The notes under the pieces were generated by a model, which was given only the letters and a program-made list of their open reading frames with translations, searched no databases and was not told where the DNA came from. Shown piece after piece: positions 39 through 12,464 of a stretch of 63,026 nt of DNA. The DNA lies in assembly GCA_021777355.1 (NCBI GenBank), contig JAJYDO010000004.1, positions 1 to 63,026 of the forward strand, given 5' to 3'. This stretch comes from Actinomycetes bacterium. GTDB lineage: Bacteria; Actinomycetota; Acidimicrobiia; Acidimicrobiales; JABEUL01. The position numbers and the translations under genes were made by a program. Position 1 is the first letter of the stretch; each line of letters starts with the position of its first letter.

Positions 39-3000
39 GTGGAACTACAATATTGGACAAGTGGGGCGACGGAACGTGCCCAAGTAGTTCATTCTCGGAG
101 CCTAAGTCTTGTAGGGAAAGACTTAGTCAGCGGTCTAGGTTTTGGAATATCTACAATTTCAGGTCGCTCCAATGTGCTCACTATTGATGGAAGTACTAAA
201 CGTGCTGTAGCGGTATTTCTATACGATGGTGAGACCTTTGAGGATTCACTTGAAAGTTTTAATGGGACCACTGCGGTTTCCCATGCACTTGCAGTTGCCG
301 ACAAAGAAAACCTTCCGTGGGTGGTGCTAACTCGTGGGAGAGAGATCCGACTTTATGCGGCAAAACCTGATGTTGGAGTTGGAAGAAAAGGCCGCTCTGA
401 GACATTTGTCGAGGTCAATTTATCATTACTACCAGATGACAAGGCCGGTTATTTAACCCTCTTATTTGGTGCAAATGCACTCCGTTCCGGGGGGACATTA
501 GAAGAGGTTTTGGAAAGATCAGAGGACTTTTCAGCATCATTAGCCATCAGACTTCGACAGCGAGTTTACTTTGATACAGTTCCGGCTCTAGCGACAGCGA
601 TTGCAAAACGCCTAGATAATACAACGACTTTAAGTGAAAAGGATCTCCAGGCTGCCTACGAGCAAACTTTGGTCATATTATTTAGACTTCTCTTCGTAGC
701 CTACGGTGAAGATCGTGACTTACTCCCATACAGGTCGAACTCCAAATACGCTGATCATTCTCTGAAACGAATTGCGAGACATCTAAGTGATGATCTTCGT
801 AATGACGCAATAAATTTTGACCCAGAGGCATCAGATCTTTGGGAGGATGTGGTCCAACTTTGGGGAGCAGTTGACAAAGGAAACACATCCTGGGGGCTAC
901 CAGCCTACAACGGCGGTTTGTTTTCCGGTGAAGCCGATGTTAATCACTCTGGTGCAGCACTGGCGGGAATAAGGCTACAAGACTCCGAATTTGGGCCTGC
1001 TTTATTAAGTCTTCTAGTCGATGAAGGCCCAGATGGAGTAGTTGGACCTGTAGATTTTAGAAGTCTTTCAGTTAGAGAGTTCGGGACAATATATGAAGGA
1101 CTCCTAGAATCCATGCTATCTGTAGCTCAAAGTGACCTTACAGTGGACAAAAAAGGTGACTATGTTCCTGCTCGCGAAAAGGACACCGTAGAGTATCCAG
1201 CTGGAACTATCTACTTCCACAACCGTTCAGGAGCGAGGAAATCTTCAGGATCTTATTTCACAAAGCCATTCGCAGTTGAACACCTTCTCGACCAAGCATT
1301 AGAGCCAGCGCTTGACAAACATCTTGAGCGCATTTCAGCATTGCTAGATGATGGAGACGATGCAAAAGCAGCTGATTTGTTCTTCGATTTTCGATGCGTT
1401 GATCTGTCGTGTGGATCTGGTCACTTTTTAGTCGCAACTGTTGATCGAATTGAAGCCAGATTTGCCAACTTCTTAAGTATGCACCCGATTCCAGCAGTGA
1501 CTAAAGAGTTAGTTCTCTTAAAAAATGCTGCAAGAGAACATCTTGGAGACTTGGCAGACAGCGTCGAGATTGAAACCACAAGTTTGTTGAGAAGACAGGT
1601 AGCAAGACGCTGTGTTTATGGCGTAGATGCCAATCACATTTCAGTCGAATTGGCTCGATTGGCGATTTGGATTCATACATTTGTCCCTGGACTCCCACTT
1701 TCGTTTTTAGACCATTCCTTGAGGCATGGGGACTCACTAACAGGGATAGGAACACCTGAGGAAGCATTAGATGTTGTTGATCCAAAAGCTAAAAGAAGCA
1801 TTGACGGCTCGCTTTACCGCACTGGTCTCGAAGAGTTCCTTGGCAGAGCCTCTAATTCCCTACGTCGACTAGCGACTATTTCAGAGAGTAGCTCGCAAGA
1901 AATTAAGGAGGCACGAAAAGCTCACCTGGAAGCGCAAGAAGCAGTGAAACCAGCTCGTCAACTCTTTGATTTGATCGTTGCTGCAAGAGTAAATGGACGA
2001 AATAATCTAATAGAGATTTCTGAAGAAAGACTGGCAAATAATATATATCTTTCAGATGCTGAAAAGACCGTGGCAAAGCTCACATCGCTCCATTTCCCTA
2101 TTGCTTTCCCAGAGGTGTTTATTCGCGAAAATCCTGGTTTTGATTGCATATTAGGTAATCCACCCTGGGAAAAGGCGAAAGTAGAGGAGTTAGGATTTTT
2201 CTCTCTCCGATATCCGGGTCTCCGGAGTTTAAATCAGGCGCGTCAACGGGACAGGATAGGCTATTTACGTACTAGCCGGCCCGATCTTGTCATGGAGTAT
2301 GAGGCGGAGGTAAAAATAGCACAATCTGTCAGAAAGCTCCTTCTTGCAGGACCTTACCCAGGGATGGGGCAAGGGGATCCCGATCTGTATAAAGCATTTG
2401 CCTGGCGCTTTTGGAGCTTGATTAGGGAGGGAGGCCATATAGGAGTAGTTCTTCCACGCTCAGCCCTAACTGCCAAAGGGAGTGCTCCCTGGCGCCTGGA
2501 GATTCTCGATCACGGTTGTTTCAAAGATGTCACCATGATCCTTAACAATGCCCAGTGGTTCTTTGAAGATGTGCACCCGCAATATACCATCGGTCTTGTG
2601 ACTATAACTAAAGGTGATGAATTTGTAGGAGATATTGGAATTAGGGGACCCTATAATTCTCTACCTGCATATGAATCAGGCATGAAGATTTCGACGACAG
2701 AATTTAAAGCAAGTGATTTTAAGTCCTGGTCTGAAGGAGCTTCATTCCCACTAATTCCAAGTGACGCTGCCTCTAGAGTGTTTAGAAAGTTGCGTTCACA
2801 CCCACGCCTTGGCAATGGTGGCGATTGGAGTTGCAGACCATATGCTGAATTTCACCCGACTCATGATAAACACCTGTTTGAACTAGATCCAACCGATACA
2901 GCAGGACTCTGGCCTGTATACAAGGGTGCTTCTTTTGATATTTGGGAACCAGATCGGGGATTGTCGCACTATTATGCTTTCGCTGATCCCAAAAAGGTAC

Positions 3001-3638
3001 TGCCCGTTCTTCAGGCGAAGAGGAAAAACAGTGCCAGAGGAAGAAGCGGAGTCTTTTCGGGATTCTCAGCCAGTTTCATAAATGACCCCAATACGTTGCC
3101 GTGCCTGTCACCTCGCATAGCCTTTCGAGATATTACTCGTTCGACGGATACGCGAACTTTGAGAGCTTGCCTAATACGACCCGAGGTTGTGATCACAGGT
3201 AAAGCACCGTACCTATTATGGCCGAAAGGTGATGAGCGAGATCAAGCCTATTTGCTTGGTGTTCTTTGTTCAATGCCGCTCGACTGGTACGGACGATGTG
3301 TTGTGGAGATTGACGTGACCTATTACCTTTTTAATGCTCTCCCTATCCCTCGACCCAGCCGAGACGATCCCATTAAGCGACGAATTGAAATTATTGCAGG
3401 CCGTCTGGCTACCCCAACTGAGGAATTCAGTAATTGGGCAAAAGCCGTAGGAGTTGAAGTTGGATCCGTCACCGATGATGAAAAGCCGGAACTCGAAGCT
3501 GAACTCGAAGCTTTAGTTTCTCGTCTTTATGGCCTAAACGAATCTGACATTAAGGTCATATATGACACGTTTCACGTTGGTGCTGATTATTCAGATAGGT
3601 GTAAATCTGTGCTTAAGTACTTCAGGCTAAATAAGTGA
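39..3638 (+). CDS. Large N6-adenine DNA methyltransferase, Eco57I/type IIG-like (DrmMI/PglX-like architecture); start uncertain
   Basis: RKSSGSYFT, motif I VDLSCGSGHFL, YGVD, motif IV GNPPW, C-terminal TRD-like region; WVVLTRGREIRLY resembles the type IIG W-x-LTNG-xx-WRLY motif. Confidence 0.85.
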   Translation: MELQYWTSGATERAQVVHSRSLSLVGKDLVSGLGFGISTISGRSNVLTIDGSTKRAVAVFLYDGETFEDSLESFNGTTAVSHALAVADKENLPWVVLTRGREIRLYAAKPDVGVGRKGRSETFVEVNLSLLPDDKAGYLTLLFGANALRSGGTLEEVLERSEDFSASLAIRLRQRVYFDTVPALATAIAKRLDNTTTLSEKDLQAAYEQTLVILFRLLFVAYGEDRDLLPYRSNSKYADHSLKRIARHLSDDLRNDAINFDPEASDLWEDVVQLWGAVDKGNTSWGLPAYNGGLFSGEADVNHSGAALAGIRLQDSEFGPALLSLLVDEGPDGVVGPVDFRSLSVREFGTIYEGLLESMLSVAQSDLTVDKKGDYVPAREKDTVEYPAGTIYFHNRSGARKSSGSYFTKPFAVEHLLDQALEPALDKHLERISALLDDGDDAKAADLFFDFRCVDLSCGSGHFLVATVDRIEARFANFLSMHPIPAVTKELVLLKNAAREHLGDLADSVEIETTSLLRRQVARRCVYGVDANHISVELARLAIWIHTFVPGLPLSFLDHSLRHGDSLTGIGTPEEALDVVDPKAKRSIDGSLYRTGLEEFLGRASNSLRRLATISESSSQEIKEARKAHLEAQEAVKPARQLFDLIVAARVNGRNNLIEISEERLANNIYLSDAEKTVAKLTSLHFPIAFPEVFIRENPGFDCILGNPPWEKAKVEELGFFSLRYPGLRSLNQARQRDRIGYLRTSRPDLVMEYEAEVKIAQSVRKLLLAGPYPGMGQGDPDLYKAFAWRFWSLIREGGHIGVVLPRSALTAKGSAPWRLEILDHGCFKDVTMILNNAQWFFEDVHPQYTIGLVTITKGDEFVGDIGIRGPYNSLPAYESGMKISTTEFKASDFKSWSEGASFPLIPSDAASRVFRKLRSHPRLGNGGDWSCRPYAEFHPTHDKHLFELDPTDTAGLWPVYKGASFDIWEPDRGLSHYYAFADPKKVLPVLQAKRKNSARGRSGVFSGFSASFINDPNTLPCLSPRIAFRDITRSTDTRTLRACLIRPEVVITGKAPYLLWPKGDERDQAYLLGVLCSMPLDWYGRCVVEIDVTYYLFNALPIPRPSRDDPIKRRIEIIAGRLATPTEEFSNWAKAVGVEVGSVTDDEKPELEAELEALVSRLYGLNESDIKVIYDTFHVGADYSDRCKSVLKYFRLNK

Positions 3639-6600
3639 CACTTGACCCAAAGCCTGATTTTGCTACTAATCGACCTGGAGAGAGGGTCGCTGATGCAATT
3701 GTTGGCTTTCTAGAGGGGCTGCAAGAAAAACTTAGCGTAGCACCACAAGTATTAATTGCTTCAGCGTATTTTAATCCCGCTGGATTTGAATTACTCGCAG
3801 ACTCTTTGGAGAAATGTGGGTCAGTGAAGCTTCTTTTAGGAGCTGAACCCCTAAGGCGTGATAATCATATTCGAAGTCTAAAATCTTCTATTGGTCCAGC
3901 TAGAGCGAGTAGTGAAAGACTTAAAAGTGCACTATCAGACCATACTGCAACTATGGCAGTCGATCGTGACTTACTCGGCTTTACCTTTGAAGCCGATGCT
4001 TCTGCGAGACGACTAGTTAAGTGGTTGGAGTCAGGAAAAGTTGAGGTTCGAAGGCTTGAGAGCTCTTTCTTGCATGGTAAAGCATTCATTGTCACAACTT
4101 ATGACGAGGGGATAATAGCTGGATCATCTAACTTTACCTACGCAGGACTCGCTACAAATGTTGAGTTAAATCTTGGCAATTACGAAGCGCATGTGGTTAG
4201 AAAAGCTGGAGACTGGTTTGACGAACTCTGGGATGAGTCAGTTGAATTTGCTCTAAGTGCAATATATAAAGCCCGCTATGTGGAACACTCGCCATATTTG
4301 ATATTCCTTCGAATGCTTTTTGAGCGCTACGGTGCTGAACTAGAGGAAGAAAGGAATGGAACTGGTGTATCGAAGATCCAGCTCACTACTTTCCAGCGTG
4401 ATGGCCTGTGGAGAGCTAAGAGAATATTAGGAGACTACCATGGCGTAGTTATAGCTGACGAGGTTGGACTTGGAAAGACATATTTGGCGGGAGAGCTAAT
4501 TCGAAAGGCTGTCGAAGAGGACCGGCAAAGGGTACTTCTCATTGCCCCAGCTACTCTTAGGGACGGACCATGGGCCAAGTTCTTTTCAAATCAGCAACTT
4601 GGAGTTGAGAAGATCTCTTTTGAAGAACTTGCAGATGACGTAAATCTTAACCCTGATGCAAGAGGGAGCTATCTCAAGAATAAGCCAAAAGAGTATTCAA
4701 TGATTGTCATTGATGAAGCTCATGCCTTAAGGAACCCTTCAACTCTGAGAGCTAATGCGCTAAGACAGCTTTTATCTGGCTCACCACCTAAAAAAGTAGT
4801 CTTGTTAACTGCAACTCCTGTGAACAATAGTCTTTGGGACCTTTACTGGTTGCTCACTTACTTTATTCGAAACGATGCAGTATTTGCTGACGCTGGAATA
4901 AAGTCCATTAAAGATCACTTTGCAGCTGCTATGGCCATGAATCCTGATGATCTTTCACCTGAGCACCTCTTTGATATATTAGATGCTGTTGCAGTACGGA
5001 GAACTAGAGAGTTTGTAAAAACTCACTATAGGAATGACACAGTTGTAATAGATGGAAACCCAGTACCAATTGTCTTTCCAACTCCAAGAGTCCGCAAAGT
5101 CACTTACGATCTCGATGATGTTCTACCTGGATTCTTTGATCGATTTGCCCATGCATTAGATGGCACTGCAGTAGGTCCTGGGGATCCAACAGTACTTTCA
5201 CTTGCCAGATATTCACCTAGCCAATACCGGTTGGATAATAATTTAGAACCCCATGAAATTCAACTCGCCGGACTTTTGAGATCAGGATTGTTAAAGCGAT
5301 TTGAATCATCAGCTCATAAATTTGCCAGAACTTGTAGGAAAATGGCGGCTAATCACGATGCTTTTCTAACACTTTTGGAACAAGGCAAAGTTGGAAAAGG
5401 TGAAGTACTTGCTGACTGGATTGCAACTGATGCAGACGATGAAGAGGAGATGAACGAGTTTTTGTCTGCTCACGCCCTTGCCTTAGACTCGGCCAGTGAA
5501 TACGATGCCGAGCTACTCTCAGCAAATGCCGCATCGGACCGAGATCTTCTTTTAAGTTTTGCTGGGGTTGCAGAAAGTGTAGAGCCCGCCACAGATCCAA
5601 AGCTTTCCCAGCTAATTGAGGAATTAGCAGAGATTGCACAAGAGGCTAAATCAGAAGGTATCGGAGAGGTAGATGCCCGAGATAAACGCAAAGTACTAGT
5701 ATTTTCCTACTTTGCTGACACGGTGGAGTGGATTGCTAATTTTGTTTTGGAGAAGGTAAATGCAGATCCTCGGTTGGCCGACTTTAAAGGAAGAGTCACA
5801 AGTATCTCAGGTACTGGTGGATCTAAACATGAAGTTCTTTGGGGATTTGCTCCACGGACCACTGAAGCACCACCTGGGGCTGATGAGGATAAATACGACA
5901 TTGTTGTCACAACTGATGTATTAGCTGAAGGCGTGAACTTGCAACAAGCACGCCATATTATTAATTACGACCTTCCATGGAACCCAATGCGCCTGGTACA
6001 GCGTCATGGTCGAATTGACCGAATCGGCTCCAATCATAAGGAAGTATTCCTACGGTGCGTATTTCCAGATGCTCAACTAGATGACCTTCTAGGCTTAGAG
6101 GAACGCCTTCACCGAAAAATTGCTCAAGCTGCTGCTGCAGTTGGAGTGGCAGAAATTCTTCCTGGAAGTCGAGCTAATGAAATAAATCTTGCAGATTCCA
6201 GAGAAGAGATTGAAAGACTGAGACACGAGGACGCATCTTTATTTGAAAAAGGCGGAAGTGGCCGTTCATCGCTATCAGGCGAAGAGTATCGGCAGGAGTT
6301 AAAAACAGCTCTACAACATAGCGATCTGGCAGAAAGTATTCGCCACCTCCCGTGGGGGTCAGGATCCGGAATGGCCATTAGTAACTATGGGGGGGAGCCA
6401 GGGTTTGTCTTCTGTACACGAATTGCAGATCATCCAAGGCCAGTTTTCCGGTTTATCCCTTCATCAAATCTAAGTCAGCCTCCAGTTAGGGATACCCTTA
6501 CCTGCATTGACATGGCTCGACCACGAGATGGATTTGACACGCCAAGAGTATTAGATGACAACACGGCTGAAGGAGCTTACGTGGCCTGGACTCGTGCGGT

Positions 6601-6949
6601 AGATGACATAGTGGAGAAATGGAATGAAGCAGCTGATCCTGCAAATCTTGCCCCATCTATACCACTTGCAATGCATCGAGCCGCTAAATTAGTGCTTGAC
6701 CACCGACCTAATGAAATGACAATTGAGGCCTCCGAGAAACTAATAGATGCTCTTCAGGCTCCTTACCCGGAGCGAATTGTCCGGTTAGTTCGATCGTTAC
6801 TTTCGACGGATGCTGTTCCTGAAGAAATTGTGAGACTAATTGACAAAACGGTCACTGAACTTGGACTCGAACCAAGCCCTCCTCCAACTCCGCTTCCAGA
6901 GATCACATCAGTCGATGTAAATCTTATTTGTTGGACAGCACTCGTTTAA
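3635..6949 (+). CDS. PLD-nuclease/SNF2-family helicase fusion
   Basis: N-terminal PLD LHGK...GSSNFT; helicase motifs DEVGLGKT, DEAH, TATP, EGVNLQ, QRHGRIDRIG; GTGA overlap with the MTase stop. Confidence 0.9.
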   Translation: MTLDPKPDFATNRPGERVADAIVGFLEGLQEKLSVAPQVLIASAYFNPAGFELLADSLEKCGSVKLLLGAEPLRRDNHIRSLKSSIGPARASSERLKSALSDHTATMAVDRDLLGFTFEADASARRLVKWLESGKVEVRRLESSFLHGKAFIVTTYDEGIIAGSSNFTYAGLATNVELNLGNYEAHVVRKAGDWFDELWDESVEFALSAIYKARYVEHSPYLIFLRMLFERYGAELEEERNGTGVSKIQLTTFQRDGLWRAKRILGDYHGVVIADEVGLGKTYLAGELIRKAVEEDRQRVLLIAPATLRDGPWAKFFSNQQLGVEKISFEELADDVNLNPDARGSYLKNKPKEYSMIVIDEAHALRNPSTLRANALRQLLSGSPPKKVVLLTATPVNNSLWDLYWLLTYFIRNDAVFADAGIKSIKDHFAAAMAMNPDDLSPEHLFDILDAVAVRRTREFVKTHYRNDTVVIDGNPVPIVFPTPRVRKVTYDLDDVLPGFFDRFAHALDGTAVGPGDPTVLSLARYSPSQYRLDNNLEPHEIQLAGLLRSGLLKRFESSAHKFARTCRKMAANHDAFLTLLEQGKVGKGEVLADWIATDADDEEEMNEFLSAHALALDSASEYDAELLSANAASDRDLLLSFAGVAESVEPATDPKLSQLIEELAEIAQEAKSEGIGEVDARDKRKVLVFSYFADTVEWIANFVLEKVNADPRLADFKGRVTSISGTGGSKHEVLWGFAPRTTEAPPGADEDKYDIVVTTDVLAEGVNLQQARHIINYDLPWNPMRLVQRHGRIDRIGSNHKEVFLRCVFPDAQLDDLLGLEERLHRKIAQAAAAVGVAEILPGSRANEINLADSREEIERLRHEDASLFEKGGSGRSSLSGEEYRQELKTALQHSDLAESIRHLPWGSGSGMAISNYGGEPGFVFCTRIADHPRPVFRFIPSSNLSQPPVRDTLTCIDMARPRDGFDTPRVLDDNTAEGAYVAWTRAVDDIVEKWNEAADPANLAPSIPLAMHRAAKLVLDHRPNEMTIEASEKLIDALQAPYPERIVRLVRSLLSTDAVPEEIVRLIDKTVTELGLEPSPPPTPLPEITSVDVNLICWTALV

Positions 6950-7251: not shown

Positions 7252-8637
7252 TCAGAGCGTGAGCGCTCGGCTAAAAGCAAAAGTCGAGTTTAGATCCCAT
7301 GGAATTACACTGGCTTGAACGTTATCTGCGCACTGAAGGTCGACGCTCACGACAGAAAAGTTAGGGCCATCATGTAGGATGCGAAGCAGGTCTGAAATAA
7401 CTAGTGAGCCAGCAAATGCACCTACAAATGCCGCTCCAACATTTACCCCAGCAATTTCAAGCATCCCACAACGGACAGCATCTTCCTTGCCTCCTTCTCT
7501 AATCAGATTGTCAATCTCATTTTCGTAAGCATTCGACAAGACCGGGGAGGCCAGACTTCTTTCTGGGAAAGCTTCCGCTGGGCCTTGAATCGCAGGAAAG
7601 GTGTGAGTGGTGATACCTAAGTAGTTGGAATATCCTGATCCGAGTCCTCCGTCAACCACTCGCAAGAATCCTCCATTACCCAGGTCTAGACGAGGACTTC
7701 GCTTGTCGAATCCCGAAAGGGCAACTGTCGGTTCATTACGCGTCCTGTCCAAGCGGAATGTGCTGTCGAATGCTCTCTCCACGATCGTTGTTTCGAAGCG
7801 TAGGCTCTCGAGAGCCGACGCCACTACGCGTGTCTTCCGACGATCAATCACGTTATCTGATCCATTAACGAGTAGCTGGGTTGCAATGTTGCCTTTTACA
7901 ACTTTGTCGAAGTCGATAAGTCCAACGTGCGTTTCTTTAGGGTTTTCATATGGCAACATGCCAAGAACCCATGAATACGCTTGCCCAAGATGACCAAGAC
8001 CTAGTAGCCAAATCTTGCTGGGAAGAAACTCTAAAGCAGGGCCAACTGCATTCTCATCGCGCCAGTTGCAAAGAGGATTCCAAAGTGAAATACCGATATC
8101 ACGCCGACTAGCAACTGGCTCACCTAGGGCGTTCTGAAATACTTCCGAGATTCCGAGTGCTCCAGCTGCAACACCAGCTGGCACAATACCGCTATTTTTC
8201 AAGACATGATCAAATTTTTGAACCACACCGCCTGACCAGCCTGAATACGTTATATGAAGGACCGGCTTACCGATGGGATCTTCTGGTCGAGCGACTGCAA
8301 GGGTTGGTTTGTTGGGATTAAGACTTTTGACAACCGTCCCTCCGAAAAGGTTAACCGCATCGGCAACGTTGAGCCCAAATCCCCAAGGAACGCGTAATTG
8401 GACATTCTTGCTAATCGCAACGTTTATTCCACCTAAAAATGCCCTGTGGCCTGCATTTACTATAGTGAGTAGGGCTGCTTGGGCCGCAGTGTCATCACCG
8501 ATGTCGTCACCAACGCTGACTTGGAGGACAAGGGTTTCCAAGAAATTAATAGCCTCGCGAGGACTGTTACAAGCCTTTGAGTCAACTAACAACTTTGCGG
8601 TGCGGTTTATAGTGTCCGGGTTTTCGTTCCAGCTCAT
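7252..8637 (-). CDS. bilD: E1/ThiF-family ubiquitin-like activating enzyme (BilD-like)
   Basis: GLGHLG nucleotide-binding loop, DFDKV, RKTR, GFDK, DGGLG, candidate catalytic Cys in AVRCGM (7468-7470); start moved to ATG 8637 (ATGA overlap with JAB stop, AAGGAGGAGG RBS). Confidence 0.85.
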   Translation of the reverse strand: MSWNENPDTINRTAKLLVDSKACNSPREAINFLETLVLQVSVGDDIGDDTAAQAALLTIVNAGHRAFLGGINVAISKNVQLRVPWGFGLNVADAVNLFGGTVVKSLNPNKPTLAVARPEDPIGKPVLHITYSGWSGGVVQKFDHVLKNSGIVPAGVAAGALGISEVFQNALGEPVASRRDIGISLWNPLCNWRDENAVGPALEFLPSKIWLLGLGHLGQAYSWVLGMLPYENPKETHVGLIDFDKVVKGNIATQLLVNGSDNVIDRRKTRVVASALESLRFETTIVERAFDSTFRLDRTRNEPTVALSGFDKRSPRLDLGNGGFLRVVDGGLGSGYSNYLGITTHTFPAIQGPAEAFPERSLASPVLSNAYENEIDNLIREGGKEDAVRCGMLEIAGVNVGAAFVGAFAGSLVISDLLRILHDGPNFSVVSVDLQCADNVQASVIPWDLNSTFAFSRALTL

Positions 8638-9125
8638 GGGAACCTCCTCCTTAAAGAAATTCGCTTTTTGGCCTCTCGTCCTGTCCATGAAGTCCAGTTT
8701 CCGCCATCGTAGCGGTGGATGCCCACCTCATATCGAGCGATTGAGTGGCACCCAAGATCTGGCAGAATCAGGGCAATGTGGCCTTTTTGTGCAATCATTG
8801 GATTTGCAGCATCGATAATGCTTTGACGTACCTGGGTGCCAGGATGAGTGTGCACGTCGCCAACGACTTTGCATTTTTCATTTTTGCAAACATCCCAAAG
8901 TTTGCTATAGGCTCGACCGTCAAAATGAATTCCACCTTTCAAACATTTAGGGTCGAGATCATCAAAATATACAACTCTACTTATAAGCCTAGGATCGCCA
9001 TCAATGTTGGCAAGAAGAAAGGCACCTGATTCCTTTATGCAATGACCGCGCGCACCTAGCTCGGCAATCATTGCATCCCAATCAGACAACCTCATCCGAA
9101 TAAGTGATCTTCTTGCTTTAAACAC
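8634..9125 (-). CDS. bilC: JAB/JAMM metallo-isopeptidase (BilC-like deubiquitinase)
   Basis: ESGAFLL catalytic Glu plus HTH-x7-S-xx-D (HTHPGTQVRQSIID) JAMM motif. Confidence 0.9.
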   Translation of the reverse strand: MFKARRSLIRMRLSDWDAMIAELGARGHCIKESGAFLLANIDGDPRLISRVVYFDDLDPKCLKGGIHFDGRAYSKLWDVCKNEKCKVVGDVHTHPGTQVRQSIIDAANPMIAQKGHIALILPDLGCHSIARYEVGIHRYDGGNWTSWTGREAKKRISLRRRFP

Positions 9126-9600
9126 CTATATACTCATCAGAATTCAAAAGTCCATGTAAGTTTTCAAGAATGAAAGTGAGATCTCGGCTGCTATTCCACG
9201 CAAAATGTGGGGCTTCTTGCTGCCAGTTAGGGTGGGCTTGAAGACCCAACCGATCCCATGGAGCGTACATGGCGTTGTCGCCAGCAACCCAACGATCAGC
9301 CCGAAAGACCAGGGCGAGTTTATCGCCCTTTGGTCGTTTATTTTGTGGTAGTGACGTGCCTGCCTCAGCATCCCAAATCCCTCCGGTAGGAGCCACATTC
9401 GGATAACCACTTAACTCGAAACGAACGACAAATTCAGTTGGGGCGCTTCCACGCGGCGCTGCTGAGATTGCGACTAAGGCAAATGGCCATTCTAAAGATA
9501 AAAGACGCCACATACCTGATTCCACACCCGACCGAAAGCCACCTCCAGCAAGGTGACCACGGAGTGTGCGTTCATCGGGAGCCATAGTTATGGCTGTCAT
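9118..9600 (-). CDS. bilB: Prokaryotic E2-like protein (BilB-like), contains no cysteine
   Basis: E2-type GYP-xx-AP motif (LSGYPNVAPT), Y-x-P-W-DR...H-xx-W...W; lies between Ubl and JAB with overlapping ends. Confidence 0.75.
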   Translation of the reverse strand: MTAITMAPDERTLRGHLAGGGFRSGVESGMWRLLSLEWPFALVAISAAPRGSAPTEFVVRFELSGYPNVAPTGGIWDAEAGTSLPQNKRPKGDKLALVFRADRWVAGDNAMYAPWDRLGLQAHPNWQQEAPHFAWNSSRDLTFILENLHGLLNSDEYIGV

Positions 9601-10064
9601 CCGGCGAAGCGATCCAGGGGCACGAGATCCAGGCAGACGCTGCAGGTATCTTGATCAATTAGCGATCCGACGTGGATATCACTAGAAAGGAAATAATCAC
9701 TTCCAGGTACGACAAGCCCGTGCTTAGCAATTTGTTCGGTTGATAAGTTGGCTGCGTTCGGTCCCGAAGCCCAGTGATAAACCGTTTTTATTTTAGTTCC
9801 AGGGCCAAATTCGTGTATGAATTCGTCAGAGTTGTAACGAACTTTAACTTCAACATGGTGGCATCGACCTATGTGGATATGGTTATGGTCTCGAATCCCC
9901 GCTTCTTCGATGGTGAGGTCGAGGTCGAGGTCATCGTCAACTTCCTCAATCCAAACCTTTTCGTCCGGATCAGAATCAATTACAAGCTCTCTGACTCTGG
10001 ATGTTGCTTCGACTTCTCTAATAACCGGTTTTTCACTTGAGTAATTGTGTAAAAATAGTTCCAT
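9597..10064 (-). CDS. bilA: Ubiquitin-like protein, probably two beta-grasp domains (ISG15-like, BilA-like)
   Basis: 155 aa; TIEEAGI and IHVGSL Ubl-like segments; ends LDLVPLDRFAG with a terminal Gly; first gene of an E2-JAB-E1 operon. Confidence 0.8.
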   Translation of the reverse strand: MELFLHNYSSEKPVIREVEATSRVRELVIDSDPDEKVWIEEVDDDLDLDLTIEEAGIRDHNHIHIGRCHHVEVKVRYNSDEFIHEFGPGTKIKTVYHWASGPNAANLSTEQIAKHGLVVPGSDYFLSSDIHVGSLIDQDTCSVCLDLVPLDRFAG

Positions 10065-10118
10065 GAATCCATCTTTCTATTGTGGTATCCCCCTGACAGC
10101 ATCGGGGAGCGGGTATAC

Positions 10119-10163
10119 TTTACCTCTGAGGTATATGATATCATATTTACCTTAGAGGTATAT
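10119..10163. promoter_or_regulatory. Tandem palindromic operator between the divergent bil operon and the higBA-like pair
   Basis: TACCTCTGAGGTA 10121-10133 and TACCTTAGAGGTA 10148-10160 flank the perfect palindrome ATATGATATCATAT 10133-10146. Confidence 0.7.
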
Positions 10164-10179
10164 CATTTGGCAAAAAACT

Positions 10180-10482
10180 ATGAAAATAACTTTCTACAGA
10201 GCGGCGCTCGCGTCGTTGTGTAACTCGGAACAGCGCTTGGTTGAACTTTGGGGAAAAGATGATGGGCATATGGTTGGGCGCAGATTGCTAGAGCTTCGTG
10301 CAGTAGATACGGGTAGCATCGAAAATCTCCCGAAAGTGGTTATAAAGAAGGGTAACGGGGGCGATACAACTATAGACTTCGGAGGGAAGATAATAGTCCG
10401 TGGACTAATCACGAGCGCCAACTTGGTGGAAGAAAGTATCTTGATCACTAGTATTGAGGTCAAAGGGAGTGTTCGTAAGTGA
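10180..10482 (+). CDS. HigB/RelE-like toxin, divergent or degenerate
   Basis: N-terminus MKITF...LASLCNSE...WG...RRLLELRA resembles HigB killer proteins; GTGA overlap with the HigA-like gene. Confidence 0.6.
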   Translation: MKITFYRAALASLCNSEQRLVELWGKDDGHMVGRRLLELRAVDTGSIENLPKVVIKKGNGGDTTIDFGGKIIVRGLITSANLVEESILITSIEVKGSVRK

Positions 10483-11549
10483 CAAGAAGCAAACAATATC
10501 CGTATCGCCCGGACTACATGATTCCTCCTGGCGAGACATTGCGGGACAAAATCACCGGGATGAACTTATCTCAGGCTGAATTGGCGGTACGGGCAGGGAT
10601 CTCCGCCAAACATGTGAATCAAATTGTGCATGGAGTGGCACCTATCACTTTGGAGACGGCTATAGCGCTTGACCGGATTACCGGTATTCCCGCCAGTGTT
10701 TGGAACCACCTCGAGGCAAACTACCGCGAGACACTACTTCGTTATACGGCAAGTACTCTTTCAGTGGATGACCAAGCCTGGATGGATTCATTACCAATCA
10801 ACGAGTTAAAGCGACGTAAAATCCTTCCAGATGAGAAAGATCGAGTGAAGTTATTCGACGCTTTATTGTCATTTTTTGGGGTTGCCGACCGTGTAGCTTG
10901 GGATCGTATATGGAAAGGACAAGTAGCATCTTTTCGAAGGTCCAGCGCGTACCGAAGCGCTCCGGAGTCGGTAATATCATGGCTGCGAATAGCACAAATT
11001 TCAGCACAAGCAGTTAACACTGAGATGTTTTCTACCACCAAGTTTCGGAAAGTGCTCAGTGAGATCCGCTCTCTCACTTCGAACGGTGACCCCAATGATA
11101 TCGTTCCATTGTGTGCTGAGGCAGGAGTGGTAGTCGTCTTTGTTTCCGAAGTTAAGGGATGTCACATCAGCGGAGCCGCATGGTGGGCGAGTAAGAACAG
11201 AGCTATTATTTCTCTAAGTGATCGATACAAAAGGGATGATCAATTCTGGTTCTCTTTCTTCCACGAAGCGGCTCATTTACTTATGCACTCAAAGAAGGAA
11301 ACTTTCGTAGATGATGGTAAAGACAACAACATAGTCGAAGAGGAAGCCGACACATTTGCAGCGAACTTTCTAATACCACGAAATTATGAGGAGCTTTTGG
11401 TCACCCTAAAGACGGAAAGTGATGTTAGAGCTTTTGCTTCGGAAATTGGCATAGCTCCCGGAATAGTTGTGGGGCGGCTACAGCATGACCGAAAGTTGGA
11501 TTGGAGTCAAGGAAATAATCTTAAGCGCGGGTTGCGCATCATCGACTGA
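10479..11549 (+). CDS. higA: HigA-type XRE HTH fused to ImmA/IrrE-family zinc metallopeptidase
   Basis: PPGETL...SQAELAVRAGISAKHVNQIVHG HTH; FWFSFFHEAAH (HExxH) and EEEADTFA. Confidence 0.85.
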   Translation: MTRSKQYPYRPDYMIPPGETLRDKITGMNLSQAELAVRAGISAKHVNQIVHGVAPITLETAIALDRITGIPASVWNHLEANYRETLLRYTASTLSVDDQAWMDSLPINELKRRKILPDEKDRVKLFDALLSFFGVADRVAWDRIWKGQVASFRRSSAYRSAPESVISWLRIAQISAQAVNTEMFSTTKFRKVLSEIRSLTSNGDPNDIVPLCAEAGVVVVFVSEVKGCHISGAAWWASKNRAIISLSDRYKRDDQFWFSFFHEAAHLLMHSKKETFVDDGKDNNIVEEEADTFAANFLIPRNYEELLVTLKTESDVRAFASEIGIAPGIVVGRLQHDRKLDWSQGNNLKRGLRIID

Positions 11550-11997
11550 TGATTTAATATCTTGGGTATAGCGATTCTATTAAGCGGCCCGTCCGTCCTC
11601 GAGGTTGCGTTGTACTAACAATCTTCTACTTGAAAATTATCGCTTGACGTCAAAATGAATCATTATCACAACCTTAACAATCTACGTGCAGTCGCGTGCT
11701 GTTGATTAATGAAGCTTTTGAGAAACATAGTTGCAGCCATACAAAACACGGATTATTAGACATTGTTGAAAATCGTGCGATTGATAGCCTAGGCAATATC
11801 TAGCTCTCTTGAATGATAAATACCGCTCCAATAACTGATTGTTCAAAGTTACTTTTGCAGCGATTACGTGTCACAAATACCGGATGATTGCAGTAACATA
11901 CTGTCACGCAAGTTACTTAAATTGCCAGTTGACTTGTGTAAGTGTTCTAACTAATAACTTGTAACCAATACCTTGCTTGTCATAAAAGTGCCACCAC

Positions 11998-12046
11998 TAG
12001 CTTTCCCAAGCTGAGTCCTCGGGTTTGATTTTCGCTGCCCATTCCA
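11998..12046 (+). pseudogene. Degenerate 3' half of a tRNA-Gly(CCC), att-like scar
   Basis: AGCTTTCCCAAGCTGAG anticodon arm, CGGGTTTGATTTTCG decayed T-arm, ends TCCA. Confidence 0.5.
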
Positions 12047-12170
12047 AAAAGAAAGTCGAGAGCTTATTAGCTACCTAACGGATTATCCTCGACCAAGAAC
12101 CTATGGCTTAATTATCTCTCTGGCGCCACAAACTACAGGAAATCTTGGAAAATGACGATAAACGCAGGCT

Positions 12171-12198
12171 GCTGGTTCAAATCCAGATGACCCCACTA
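12171..12198 (+). repeat. Inverted degenerate copy of the tRNA-Ile 3' end (att-like)
   Basis: GCTGGTTCAAATCCAGATGACCCCACTA matches tRNA GCTGGTTCAAGTCCAGCTAGCCCCACCA at 23/28. Confidence 0.65.
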
Positions 12199-12243
12199 AT
12201 CCTAGAAAAGGCGACTCAATTCAGTCCTTGGATTGGTCTATTT

Positions 12244-12293
12244 CGTGCCCCAAACGTGCCCCACCAGAATAAAAACGTGCCCCAAACGTGCCC
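12244..12293 (+). repeat. Four CGTGCCC repeats in two pairs (integrase arm-type sites)
   Basis: CGTGCCCCAAACGTGCCC at 12244 and 12276; 11-bp spacing within each pair. Confidence 0.7.
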
Positions 12294-12387
12294 TTTCCAG
12301 GGGTATTTCAAGGGAATTGTGGGTAAACAAAGGTGTTAACAAGTGACTGATAAATATAGTCTGACCTGCGATAATGGTCCATTTTCC

Positions 12388-12464
12388 TGGTGGGGCTAGC
12401 TGGACTTGAACCAGCGACCTCAGCATTATCAGTGCTGCGCTCTAACCAGCTGAGCTATAGCCCC
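12388..12464 (-). tRNA. tRNA-Ile(GAT)
   Basis: GGGGCTA/TAGCCCC acceptor stem, anticodon loop CTGATAA, GGTTCAAGTCC T-arm, encoded CCA; 77 nt; downstream of gyrA. Confidence 0.97.

Follow-up and report, generated by a model that had tools for sequence, protein, structure and literature searches.

A stretch of 63,026 nucleotides of actinobacterial DNA (the window) carries, at 7252-10064 on the minus strand, a four-gene operon that is probably a BilABCD conjugation operon of the Type I family and a candidate anti-phage system. In this system the E2-fold protein BilB, which has tryptophan at the position of the family cysteine, would be non-catalytic, and a divergently encoded protein in which an HTH domain is fused to an M78 peptidase (HTH-M78) would act as repressor. 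The four reading frames are all intact and are translationally coupled:

9597-10064, minus strand: bilA, ubiquitin-like protein (Ubl), 155 aa, C terminus ..DRFAG and then the stop
9118-9600, minus strand: bilB, E2-fold protein, 160 aa
8634-9125, minus strand: bilC, JAB/JAMM protein, 163 aa, HTHPGTQVRQSIID
7252-8637 (longest open reading frame 7252-8688), minus strand: bilD, E1 protein, 461 aa against 478 aa in the longest frame

An ATGA at 9597-9600 contains both the bilA stop and the bilB start, the bilB stop overlaps the GTG start of bilC by 8 nt (9118-9125), and a further ATGA at 8637 joins the bilC stop to a candidate bilD ATG. The true start of bilD is probably 8637 rather than 8688 because this ATG overlaps the bilC stop and has the Shine-Dalgarno sequence AAGGAGGAGG just upstream, and because 461 aa is the length of several homologues. 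PADLOC models matched the four products over nearly their full length, with E values of 2.7e-39 for BilA, 1.1e-53 for BilB, 2.5e-54 for BilC, and 1.7e-134 for BilD; four such matches in one operon lie far beyond chance expectation. The gene order Ubl, E2, JAB, E1 is that of Type I BilABCD, and 24 related loci share this synteny. Gene content, gene order, and HMM matches together support the assignment of 7252-10064 to the Bil (ISG15-like) operons of Type I. An earlier note on this DNA had proposed four genes with overlapping start and stop regions and the content and order of Bil; the positions are as it claimed, the overlaps can be read directly, and the HMM search agrees.

Residues 1-155 of BilA align to positions 4-162 of the 162-position PADLOC model. 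The AF2 model of BilA (pLDDT 92.6) matched linear di-ubiquitin and ISG15 in Foldseek over ~160 columns with E values of 5e-8 to 1e-6, and BilA accordingly models as two tandem β-grasp domains, as in ISG15 or di-ubiquitin. The absence of a β-grasp fold, which would have counted against the earlier note, is thus not what the model gives. The Gly-terminated Ubl that the note described is also found: Gly-155 directly precedes the stop, and all 23 sequences compared (the window and 22 loci) end in glycine.

BilC has a Pfam match to Prok-JAB at 4.5e-5, which is under the cut-off of that family. Its JAMM site consists of Glu-32 and H92-x-H94-x7-S102-x2-D105. His-92, His-94, Ser-102, and Asp-105 are at least 95% conserved (n = 27 sequences), and Glu-32 is present in 25 of 27, both exceptions being frame-broken loci. 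The product of bilC is a JAB/JAMM metallopeptidase and predicted deconjugating enzyme. Asp-115 of the BilC JAMM site is described in the preprint text as essential in Collimonas (Hör et al., 10.1101/2023.09.04.556158). Residues 22-459 of BilD, numbered in the longest frame, align to positions 4-435 of the 453-position PADLOC model; the sole Pfam match is to ThiF (6.2e-5, under cut-off). The 478-aa frame has a GLGHLG nucleotide loop at 230 and RCG at 406. Both the intact JAMM protease and the E1 with GxGxxG and RCG of the earlier note are present. The loop occurs in 24 of 25 BilD sequences, and Cys-390 counted from the ATG at 8637 (Cys-407 from 8688) is cysteine in 25 of 25. By its position this residue appears equivalent to Cys-385, given as the catalytic cysteine of the Collimonas E1 in the same preprint (Hör et al., 10.1101/2023.09.04.556158).

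Twenty-seven related bil loci were fetched, and the gene-context counts given here cover these 27. The four-gene synteny is complete in 24; L023, L025, and L027 are partial or frame-broken. Twenty-four of the 27 come from Actinomycetota, the search pattern itself being clade-specific. The related loci are 34-59% identical, yet they keep Trp-115 of BilB, the terminal glycine, the E1 cysteine, and the JAMM site.

BilB belongs to Pfam PF24702 (DUF7665; E value 3e-39). Foldseek searches with its AF2 model (pLDDT 90.3) returned as top matches 8tz0_C and 8tyz_C, the E2 chains of the Ensifer aridi E1-E2-Ubl complex, followed by eukaryotic E2s and the UEVs Mms2 (1j74) and Uev1a (2hlw); BilB models as an E2 (UBC) fold. 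The window's BilB contains no cysteine in the whole protein, which agrees with the atypical E2 of the earlier note. Its motif is Y112-A-P-W115-D-R ... H123..W126, and the family motif in Cys-bearing members is Y-x-P-C-D-R, with Trp-115 of the window at the cysteine column. Tryptophan occupies position 115 in 24 of 25 BilB sequences of the clade, the exception being a cysteine in a Flavitalea locus (L026). A wider family sample of 120 sequences comprised the window and 119 representatives, which were left from the best 150 after removal of 31 whose length fell outside 140-200 aa. Position 115 is cysteine in 32 of these and Tyr, Trp, Phe, or an aliphatic residue in 88, a Cys-less share that holds within this sample, which is the top of a ranking by the clade's own profile. 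The 88 have no other Cys-rich column (maximum 17 of 88), and 18 have no cysteine at all. Tyr-112 (119 of 120), Pro-90, Asp-116/Arg-117, His-123 (113 of 120), Trp-126, and Trp-135 are kept across the family. On a 118-sequence tree the Cys/non-Cys state changes at least 16 times, and at least 6 changes are forced by well supported branches. BilB has dN/dS values of 0.14-0.36 (14 pairs), similar to those of its partners (BilA, 0.13-0.32; BilC, 0.10-0.32; BilD, 0.15-0.33). As judged from these alignments, Trp-115 is clade-wide in a BilB that is under purifying selection.

In the two systems studied experimentally, the preprint texts report that C113A in Collimonas BilB abolishes function and defense (Hör et al., 10.1101/2023.09.04.556158) and that C138A in E. 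aridi BilB abolishes function (Chambers et al., 10.1101/2023.09.26.559546). This cysteine is reported there as highly conserved in Type I and Type II, and the Ubl~E2 thioester is described in the text of the Collimonas preprint as having escaped detection (Hör et al., 10.1101/2023.09.04.556158). We infer that the Trp-115 column is equivalent to Cys-113 and Cys-138 from the family motif, the residue numbering, the conserved downstream histidine, and the location of the site just before helix 117-122 of the model. Sequence searches of the PDB with the four proteins, a clade profile (A1), and a Cys-type profile (A2) gave nothing significant, the best match being BilC to 8tyx with an E value of 0.89; the E. 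aridi BilB chain was not reached by the profile searches, and no Collimonas name appeared among the clusters of 8 Cys-type representatives or 19 profile A2 matches. The preprint texts searched make no mention of a cysteine-less Type I BilB, a point on which journal versions and supplementary homologue lists may bear, and a literature search for DUF7665 by name returned nothing.

A complex of BilD and BilB was predicted with an ipSAE of 0.60 (runs of 0.64, 0.59, and 0.60; best control 0.00), although the solved complex 8TZ0 is alike and the prediction may be a memory of it. Of 157 solved complexes, 116 clear the mark that this score reaches, as do 2 of 215 mismatched pairs; a score of 0.60 or less was reached by only 18 of the 157 and by both passing mismatches. 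The contacts agreed to 92% or better between runs, and the partners had pLDDT values of 88 or higher. The prediction counts as weak support and is not used as evidence for the readings given here.

The Type I BilABCD (Bacterial ISG15-like) system of Collimonas sp. OK412, reportedly described by Millman in 2022, shares with the operon the Ubl-E2-JAB-E1 order, a two-domain Ubl with terminal glycine, the E1 cysteine, an intact JAMM site, and the lack of an E3. It differs in that BilB in the window has Trp-115 against an essential, presumed equivalent Cys-113, and in that the system here, known from its genes alone, has an actinobacterial host and divergent HigB-like and XRE-HTH/M78 genes. The Type II system of E. 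aridi TW10 (CEHH/6C; 8TZ0/8TYZ/8TYX) has the same four roles in the same order, and its E2 chains are the best PDB matches of the BilB model. However, BilA of the window has two domains rather than one and no C-terminal extension, so that no trimming is needed; Pfam gives DUF7665 for BilB and ThiF alone for BilD; the CEHH cysteine is absent; and none of the solved chains was matched significantly by sequence. PF14459 would be expected at the N terminus of a Type II BilD according to the preprint text (10.1101/2023.09.26.559546). Type II was ruled out on the lack of the CEHH motif, of PF14459, and of the C-terminally extended and mostly single-domain Ubl of that type. Bub (6E/DUF6527) resembles the operon in having an E2-fold protein without the catalytic cysteine in an otherwise complete Ubl pathway and, frequently, HTH/M78-type regulators. 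As set out in the preprint text, Bub has Ubl-E2 and JAB-E1 (or E2-E1) fusions and the DUF6527 serine protease BubE, and its E1 has no catalytic cysteine and uses Tyr/Ser oxyesters instead (Ye et al., 10.1101/2024.11.21.623953). Bub was ruled out because the genes of the window are separate, the E1 cysteine is invariant, the operon is flanked by a helicase gene and a HigB-like gene with no adjacent DUF6527 gene, and the HMMs indicate Bil. The "inactive" E2 of Bub proved active through serine, and absence of cysteine need not equal absence of catalysis.

Upstream of bilA lie two divergent genes and a shared promoter region:

10119-10162, no strand: two palindromic operator-like sites, TTTACCTCTGAGGTATA at 10119-10135 and TTTACCTTAGAGGTATA at 10146-10162
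10180-10482, plus strand: HigB-like (RelE/ParE-fold) protein, 100 aa, leading the divergent pair
10479-11549, plus strand: XRE/HigA-type HTH fused to an M78 (ImmA/IrrE) zinc peptidase with HEAAH, 356 aa

The HigB-like protein had no match in Pfam, PADLOC, or NCBIfam, and an Atlas structure search placed it near HigB-like/RelE-ParE toxin clusters (TM 0.70-0.74). Homologues of 36-44% identity hold the same position in 13 loci, with dN/dS of 0.21-0.33. The HTH-M78 gene starts with a GTG that overlaps the HigB-like stop by 4 nt. Its product matched Peptidase_M78 (9.2e-12) and HTH_3 (8.9e-8) in Pfam, PD-Lambda-2_B (7.2e-34) and, on the M78 part, capP (1.1e-9) in PADLOC, and HigA (8.9e-12) and the spr1629 antitoxin (7e-12) in NCBIfam. 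The palindromes sit in the 115 bp that separate bilA from the HigB-like gene. A palindrome of the TTTACCTC-N-GAGGTAAA type with a second, half-conserved copy lies upstream of bilA in all 15 extracted loci that have a PD-lambda-2B-like gene, and those at 10119-10162 are putative operators. An RNAalifold analysis of the bilA leaders of 13 loci found no consensus structure, and a scan of 10065-10179 for the σ70 consensus, which is uninformative for an actinobacterium, found no promoter.

Adjacency and the palindromes are what point to the HTH-M78 protein as a candidate repressor and sensor of the bil operon. Alternatively, though we consider this unlikely, the pair could be a toxin-antitoxin or abortive-infection module of the PD-lambda-2 kind that functions on its own and just accompanies bil. 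Its first gene has the HigB-like fold and its second the PD-Lambda-2_B match, corresponding to A (by fold only) and B of PD-lambda-2, which consists of a HigB-like A, a HigA-HTH plus peptidase B, and a P4-antitoxin-like C, and which in E. coli is reported to defend unaided and to have a B protein that is toxic on its own (Vassallo et al. 2022, PMC9519451). Against this, the third gene, C, is missing downstream of 11549: no open reading frame of at least 40 aa with any family sign was found in 11550-12387. Moreover, HTH-M78 copies of 52-68% identity (dN/dS 0.06-0.23) adjoin bil in 16 loci, fixed in divergent orientation; in 7 further loci this divergent place is filled by another HTH-M78 type that looks unrelated; M78 genes flank bilA in L008 and L014; and the palindromes of the bilA promoter region are conserved. 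CapH/CapP regulators have a related HTH and M78 logic and are given in the preprint text as present in 15% of Type II operons (10.1101/2023.09.26.559546), but there the HTH repressor and the cleaving M78 peptidase are separate and have no HigB-like partner, whereas here the two are fused. In all, an XRE-HTH/M78 or M78 gene adjoins bilA in 25 of 27 loci. This count, the actinobacterial origin of most loci under a clade-specific search, and the prevalence of Trp-115 favor the earlier note's suggestion of a separate actinobacterial subtype that has an atypical E2 and a regulator of its own, the regulation itself being deduced from adjacency and palindromes. On its sequence, the operon is a Type I Bil variant whose BilB has Trp-115.

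By homology with Collimonas and Ensifer, BilD would adenylate the free C-terminal Gly-155 of the two-domain BilA and would then hold BilA as a thioester on the invariant Cys-390/407, and BilC would strip BilA from wrong targets and recycle it. BilA would finally be attached to lysines of target proteins, which in the studied case are phage structural proteins. The HTH-M78 protein and its HigB-like partner would bind both palindromes and hold bil expression off until a phage or DNA-damage cue releases repression, as with CapH/CapP-type regulators. Within this scheme we put at slightly under an even chance the proposal that BilB is a non-catalytic E2 variant and that BilA passes from the E1 thioester straight to the target lysine; BilB would then be an adaptor that binds the E1, chooses the target, or does both. 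Eukaryotic UEVs (Mms2, Uev1a) and RWD domains have the E2 fold without an active-site cysteine and are non-catalytic partners, the UEVs assisting the catalytic E2 Ubc13. BilB resembles the UEVs in its Cys-less E2 fold and in the Foldseek matches of its model. Unlike the UEVs, it has no Cys-bearing E2 beside it in the bil operon, and transfer would therefore come straight from the E1.

It is rather improbable that BilB is still a catalytic carrier, with BilA passing from the E1 to an oxyester on a non-cysteine nucleophile of BilB (for example Tyr-112 or another hydroxyl) and then to the target. The E1 and E2 of Bub do use oxyesters (Tyr370, Ser333/His335) although that E2 was once called inactive, as reported (Ye; Iyer 2006), and the well kept Tyr-112 and His-123 are close to position 115. 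These two residues, however, are kept equally in Cys-bearing BilB and so are not a replacement specific to Cys-less members; the residues found at position 115 in many members (Trp, Phe, Leu, Val, Ile, Met) are non-nucleophiles; and the E1 cysteine is retained in every sequence, unlike in Bub. BilB as a non-catalytic adaptor remains our preferred reading.

The operon lies among genes of a defense type beside a tRNA gene:

39-3638, plus strand: Type IIG restriction-modification-like methyltransferase, PADLOC REase_MTase_IIG 3.6e-268 (model 177-1372 of 1378)
3635-6949, plus strand: PLD(HKD)+SNF2 helicase, PADLOC C3a139 "HKD+Snf2" 1.7e-51 and DrmD 6e-37
12388-12464, minus strand: tRNA-Ile(GAT), ARAGORN, Rfam tRNA 77 bits

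The methyltransferase gene (Pfam Eco57I) starts 38 nt from the contig start and overlaps the helicase gene (Pfam PLDc_2, SNF2-rel_dom, and Helicase_C) by 4 nt. The gene order dnaA-dnaN-recF-dciA-gyrB-gyrA-tRNA-Ile is present, and the tRNA, with its 3' end facing the island, is likely the island boundary next to gyrA. The tRNA-Ile 3' end is not repeated anywhere in the window, and the opposite end of the island is past the contig start. All best named matches of GyrA are from Acidimicrobiales (top 98% identity), and the host of the operon is an Acidimicrobiales MAG. The neighbors and the GyrA matches bear out the defense island and the actinobacterial host of the earlier note.

Very little favors a housekeeping or stress Ubl pathway or a sulfur-carrier pathway in place of an anti-phage system. 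E1/Ubl/JAB sets also act in sulfur transfer, as reported by Iyer 2006, but defense-type genes surround the operon, each of the four bil genes has a homologue in the Bil system whose defense was shown by experiment, the neighborhood contains neither rhodanese nor sulfur-metabolism genes, and occurrence is sporadic: of 401 Actinomycetota genomes sampled, 4 had BilB matches, this genome among them, and only 2 of the 4 were strong. It is more improbable again that the operon is a decaying remnant in which loss of the E2 cysteine killed conjugation, as the dead Cys-to-Ala mutants reported for both studied systems might suggest, since its four genes are intact and coupled, BilB is constrained like its partners, and the key residues of all four proteins persist across divergent loci.

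More widely, and tentatively, with somewhat less than an even chance, a large part of Type I Bil (DUF7665), including the whole actinobacterial clade, may conjugate its Ubl without an E2 thioester, with BilB as a cysteine-less adaptor. The Ubl would then pass from the E1 cysteine to the target directly or via an unseen non-thiol intermediate. Among bacterial systems Bil has been presented as the nearest equivalent of the eukaryotic E1-E2 cascade, and neither of the two systems studied works without its E2 cysteine. At the E2 active site of the clade and of many relatives stands a bulky non-nucleophile, even though purifying selection maintains their Ubl glycine, E1 cysteine, and JAMM site. If the proposal is true, the E2 thioester is an optional step within an otherwise eukaryote-like cascade. 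The clade lets one ask whether an E2 fold can serve as a mere adaptor or specificity factor while the chemistry is done by the E1, a question that bears on the origins of E2s, UEVs, and RWD domains. The recurring HigB-like/HTH-M78 module may, in addition, tie toxin-antitoxin-type sensing to the control of ubiquitin-like defense.

The bil operon (bacterial ISG15-like anti-phage system) encodes a Ubl (bilA), an E2-fold protein (bilB), a JAMM protease (bilC) and an E1 (bilD), and faces a divergent gene pair. The features, read from the sequence and its ORFs, are as follows.

7252-10064, minus strand: the bil operon, with ORFs of 155, 160, 163 and 478 aa
10119-10135 and 10146-10162: palindromes in the intergenic region between bilA and the HigB-like ORF
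10180-10482, divergent from bilA and 115 bp away from it: a HigB-like ORF of 100 aa
Overlapping the stop of the 100-aa ORF by 4 nt, divergent from bilA: the gene for a 356-aa protein

The start/stop overlaps of the bil genes point to translational coupling. A single ATGA at 9597-9600 both ends bilA and opens bilB, and bilC, which starts with GTG, overlaps the end of bilB by 8 nt. The start of bilD is most likely the ATG at 8637 (461 aa) and not the first ATG at 8688, because the 8637 ATG shares an ATGA with the bilC stop and is preceded by AAGGAGGAGG. Each protein matched nearly the whole of its PADLOC-DB model (BilA 2.7e-39, BilB 1.1e-53, BilC 2.5e-54, BilD 1.7e-134). In Pfam, BilB belongs to DUF7665 (3e-39), the Prok-JAB and ThiF matches fell under their cut-offs and BilA had no match; NCBIfam named none of the four products. 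By homology, the operon is classed as Type I Bil.

For comparison, 27 related bil loci were gathered with the clade-specific pattern [ML]YAP[WC]DR.., and the sample is biased. An AlphaFold2 model of BilA built with 20 clade sequences (pLDDT 92.6) aligned with linear di-ubiquitin and ISG15 over ~160 columns (E 5e-8 to 1e-6, probability 1.0), and BilA is therefore predicted to consist of two beta-grasp domains, matching the description of Type I Bil. BilA ends in Gly both in the window and wherever the related loci encode the complete protein (22 loci). Among 25 BilD sequences the GLGHLG motif is present in 24 and the Cys of R-C-G in every one. The BilC residues E32 and H92-x-H94-x7-S102-x2-D105 are all present and conserved.

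BilB lacks the catalytic residue expected of an E2. The BilB model (pLDDT 90.3) has the E2 fold, and among PDB entries it came closest to the E2 chains in the Ensifer aridi complex of E1, E2 and Ubl (8tz0_C, E 1.1e-3, probability 1.0, TM 0.53-0.57), with E2s of eukaryotes and the E2 variants Mms2 and Uev1a ranking next. However, the window BilB contains no cysteine at all, whereas the E2 cysteine is essential in both of the Bil systems studied experimentally. In the Collimonas system, defence is reported to be lost in the BilB C113A variant, as in BilD C385A, BilC D115A and BilA G163L, and its authors report that the Ubl~E2 thioester was undetectable to them (10.1101/2023.09.04.556158). In the E. 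aridi system C138A is reported to abolish conjugation, and strong conservation of C138 and H151 is described for both types of Bil (10.1101/2023.09.26.559546). The 'inactive E2/RWD-like' domains reported by Iyer et al. (2006) belong to the 6e operons, for which the present name is Bub. The literature searched, with journal versions and supplementary homologue tables outside its scope, makes no mention of a cysteine-less Type I BilB.

A search of 1.84 billion representative proteins with the clade profile gave 470 matches at E <=1e-3, of which the best 150 were used. The window BilB and 119 of these 150 (140-200 aa) were aligned, with 31 fragments or fusions left out. The family motif is Y112-x-P114-X115-D116-R117 ... 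H123..W126, and among these 120 best-ranked sequences Y112 is conserved in 119, P90 in 120, D116 in 107, R117 in 110, H123 in 113 and W126 in 114. At position 115 the same best-ranked sample has 32 Cys, 23 Tyr, 22 Trp and 14 Phe, with Leu, Val, Ile, Met, Thr or others in the rest. The cysteine of E2 enzymes sits just before a helix, and position 115 lies just ahead of helix 117-122 of the model. On the strength of this location, the agreement in residue numbering, the status of column 115 as the sole Cys-rich column and the conserved His downstream, we infer that column 115 corresponds to Collimonas C113 and E. aridi C138. In the 88 sequences with another residue at position 115, any other column has at most 17 Cys, and 18 of the 88 are wholly Cys-free. 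In a FastTree phylogeny of 118 sequences (two rows that looked frame-broken were omitted), the Cys/non-Cys state requires at least 16 changes, at least 6 of them being forced by branches with support >=95, and many branches are weak. In the window's own clade (25 full-length sequences), position 115 is Trp in 24; the sole Cys115 occurs in the most distant sequence, from Flavitalea (Bacteroidota).

Fusions also occur in the family. Eight of the best 150 representatives are BilA-BilB fusions of 323-355 aa (P0091, P0122, P0127, P0129, P0132, P0166, P0168 and P0189) and two are BilB-BilC fusions (P0150 and P0176), with Cys, Phe, Tyr, Met or Ile at the active-site position. By analogy with Bub, the Gly of a fused Ubl would have to be released by cleavage. 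The fusions are possibly gene-calling artefacts across ATGA overlaps.

The cysteine-less bilB is alive by every measure applied, because its dN/dS is as low as that of its partners and 24 related loci contain the entire operon (it is partial or frame-broken in L023, L025 and L027). By the Nei-Gojobori method, 14 locus pairs gave dN/dS values of 0.14-0.36 for BilB, 0.13-0.32 for BilA, 0.10-0.32 for BilC and 0.15-0.33 for BilD. These selection data speak against a decayed bil system, which we regard as highly improbable.

The 356-aa protein of the divergent pair combines an XRE/HigA-type HTH (HTH_3 8.9e-8, NCBIfam HigA 8.9e-12) with an M78 ImmA/IrrE peptidase domain (9.2e-12) containing HEAAH; PADLOC matched it to PD-Lambda-2_B (7.2e-34) and more weakly to capP. 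The 100-aa ORF has no family match, and its Atlas model resembles HigB-like/RelE-ParE toxin clusters (TM 0.70-0.74). The pair mirrors A and B of Escherichia coli PD-lambda-2, in which A is reported to be HigB-like and to neutralise B, a HigA-HTH and peptidase protein toxic alone; PD-lambda-2 defence needs a third gene (PMC9519451), which is absent here.

Of the 27 loci, 16 have the HTH-M78 gene at the corresponding place, with 52-68% identity, mostly above that of the Bil proteins, and 13 of these 16 also have the small HigB-like ORF. A second sub-clade of seven loci (L017-L022 and L028) has, in place of the HigB-like/HTH-M78 pair, the gene for a different HTH-M78 protein of 401 aa (65-86% mutual identity) in the same divergent position, ~100-130 bp upstream of bilA. 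The next gene there encodes a conserved protein of 208-244 aa that matches no Pfam family, and in L017 an HsdM gene of Type I RM comes after it. With a further HTH-M78 gene in L014 and an M78-domain gene in L008, both adjacent to bilA, an HTH-M78 or M78 gene adjoins bil in 25 of the 27 loci. The window's bil carries a fixed HTH-M78 module; CapH/CapP are reported to occur with 15% of Type II Bil operons (Chambers et al., 10.1101/2023.09.26.559546) and with 31% of Bub operons (Ye et al., 10.1101/2024.11.21.623953). A palindrome of type TTTACCTC-N-GAGGTAAA lies in the intergenic region shared by bilA and the divergent pair, along with a second, partly conserved copy; the palindromes recur in all 15 extracted loci with the PD-lambda-2B-like gene. 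By analogy with CapH/CapP, the HTH-M78 protein may repress bil, with relief by proteolysis. A short hairpin rich in G+C occurs in the bilA leader of the window (10065-10118, CTCCCC..GGGGGA) and at the equivalent site of each locus in L002-L025, with the putative operator region on one side of it and the AAGGAG-type ribosome site on the other. The hairpin sequences differ between loci and do not align, and RNAalifold gave no consensus.

The host assembly (2.78 Mb, 118 contigs, 93.6% complete) has the window at the start of contig 97. The window holds dnaA, dnaN, recF, dciA, gyrB and gyrA, then tRNA-Ile(GAT), and the named top GyrA matches are Acidimicrobiales MAGs throughout, the first with 98% identity. 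Two further genes precede bil.

39-3638, plus strand: Type IIG RM-like methyltransferase protein (PADLOC 3.6e-268, model positions 177-1372 of 1378)
3635-6949, plus strand: PLD+SNF2 helicase (PADLOC C3a139 1.7e-51, DrmD-like)

The methyltransferase, whose gene begins 38 nt from the contig end, is additionally DrmMI-like (4.5e-61). The helicase gene overlaps it by 4 nt, and the two genes therefore probably make up a single defence unit, either DISARM-like or RM-like. From the contig start to tRNA-Ile, methyltransferase, helicase, bil operon, divergent pair and 840 gene-free bp make up a defence island at the tRNA gene 3' end; its far end lies beyond the contig start. Within the gene-free stretch (11550-12387, no ORF of note), near-tandem ACGTGCCCCAAACGTGCC copies at 12236-12300 (plus strand), ~90-150 bp from the tRNA-Ile 3' end, could be a recombination/att-like remnant or a protein-binding array.

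By record label, 13 of the 27 loci are Acidimicrobiia/Acidimicrobiales (3 of them Ca. Poriferisodalis), 8 Solirubrobacterales, 3 other Actinomycetota, and one each Acidobacteriaceae, Flavitalea and Micrarchaeaceae. The last (L014), an 8.6-kb contig in a DPANN-labelled bin, carries the whole bil operon at 40-53% identity to that of the window, beside its HTH-M78 gene and a DDE transposase; mis-binning of a bacterial contig is a likelier explanation than an archaeal Bil. The BilB model matched 4 of 401 evenly sampled Actinomycetota genomes, this one included, and only this genome and one other strongly; bil distribution is therefore sporadic, as for defence genes.

By homology, BilD would adenylate Gly155 of BilA and then hold it as a thioester on Cys390/407, BilA would form an isopeptide bond with target lysines, and the JAMM site of BilC would deconjugate it. 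Because BilB has no thiol, the Ubl would pass from E1 to target either directly or via a BilB hydroxyl. Carriage on a hydroxyl, as by the Bub E2, we consider unlikely; the remaining weight goes to a wrong residue assignment or to something not yet imagined. Our preferred reading, held at slightly short of even chances, is direct transfer from the E1 thioester to the target, in which BilB would be a docking or target-selecting subunit. That Bil E2s choose targets is already suggested in the literature.
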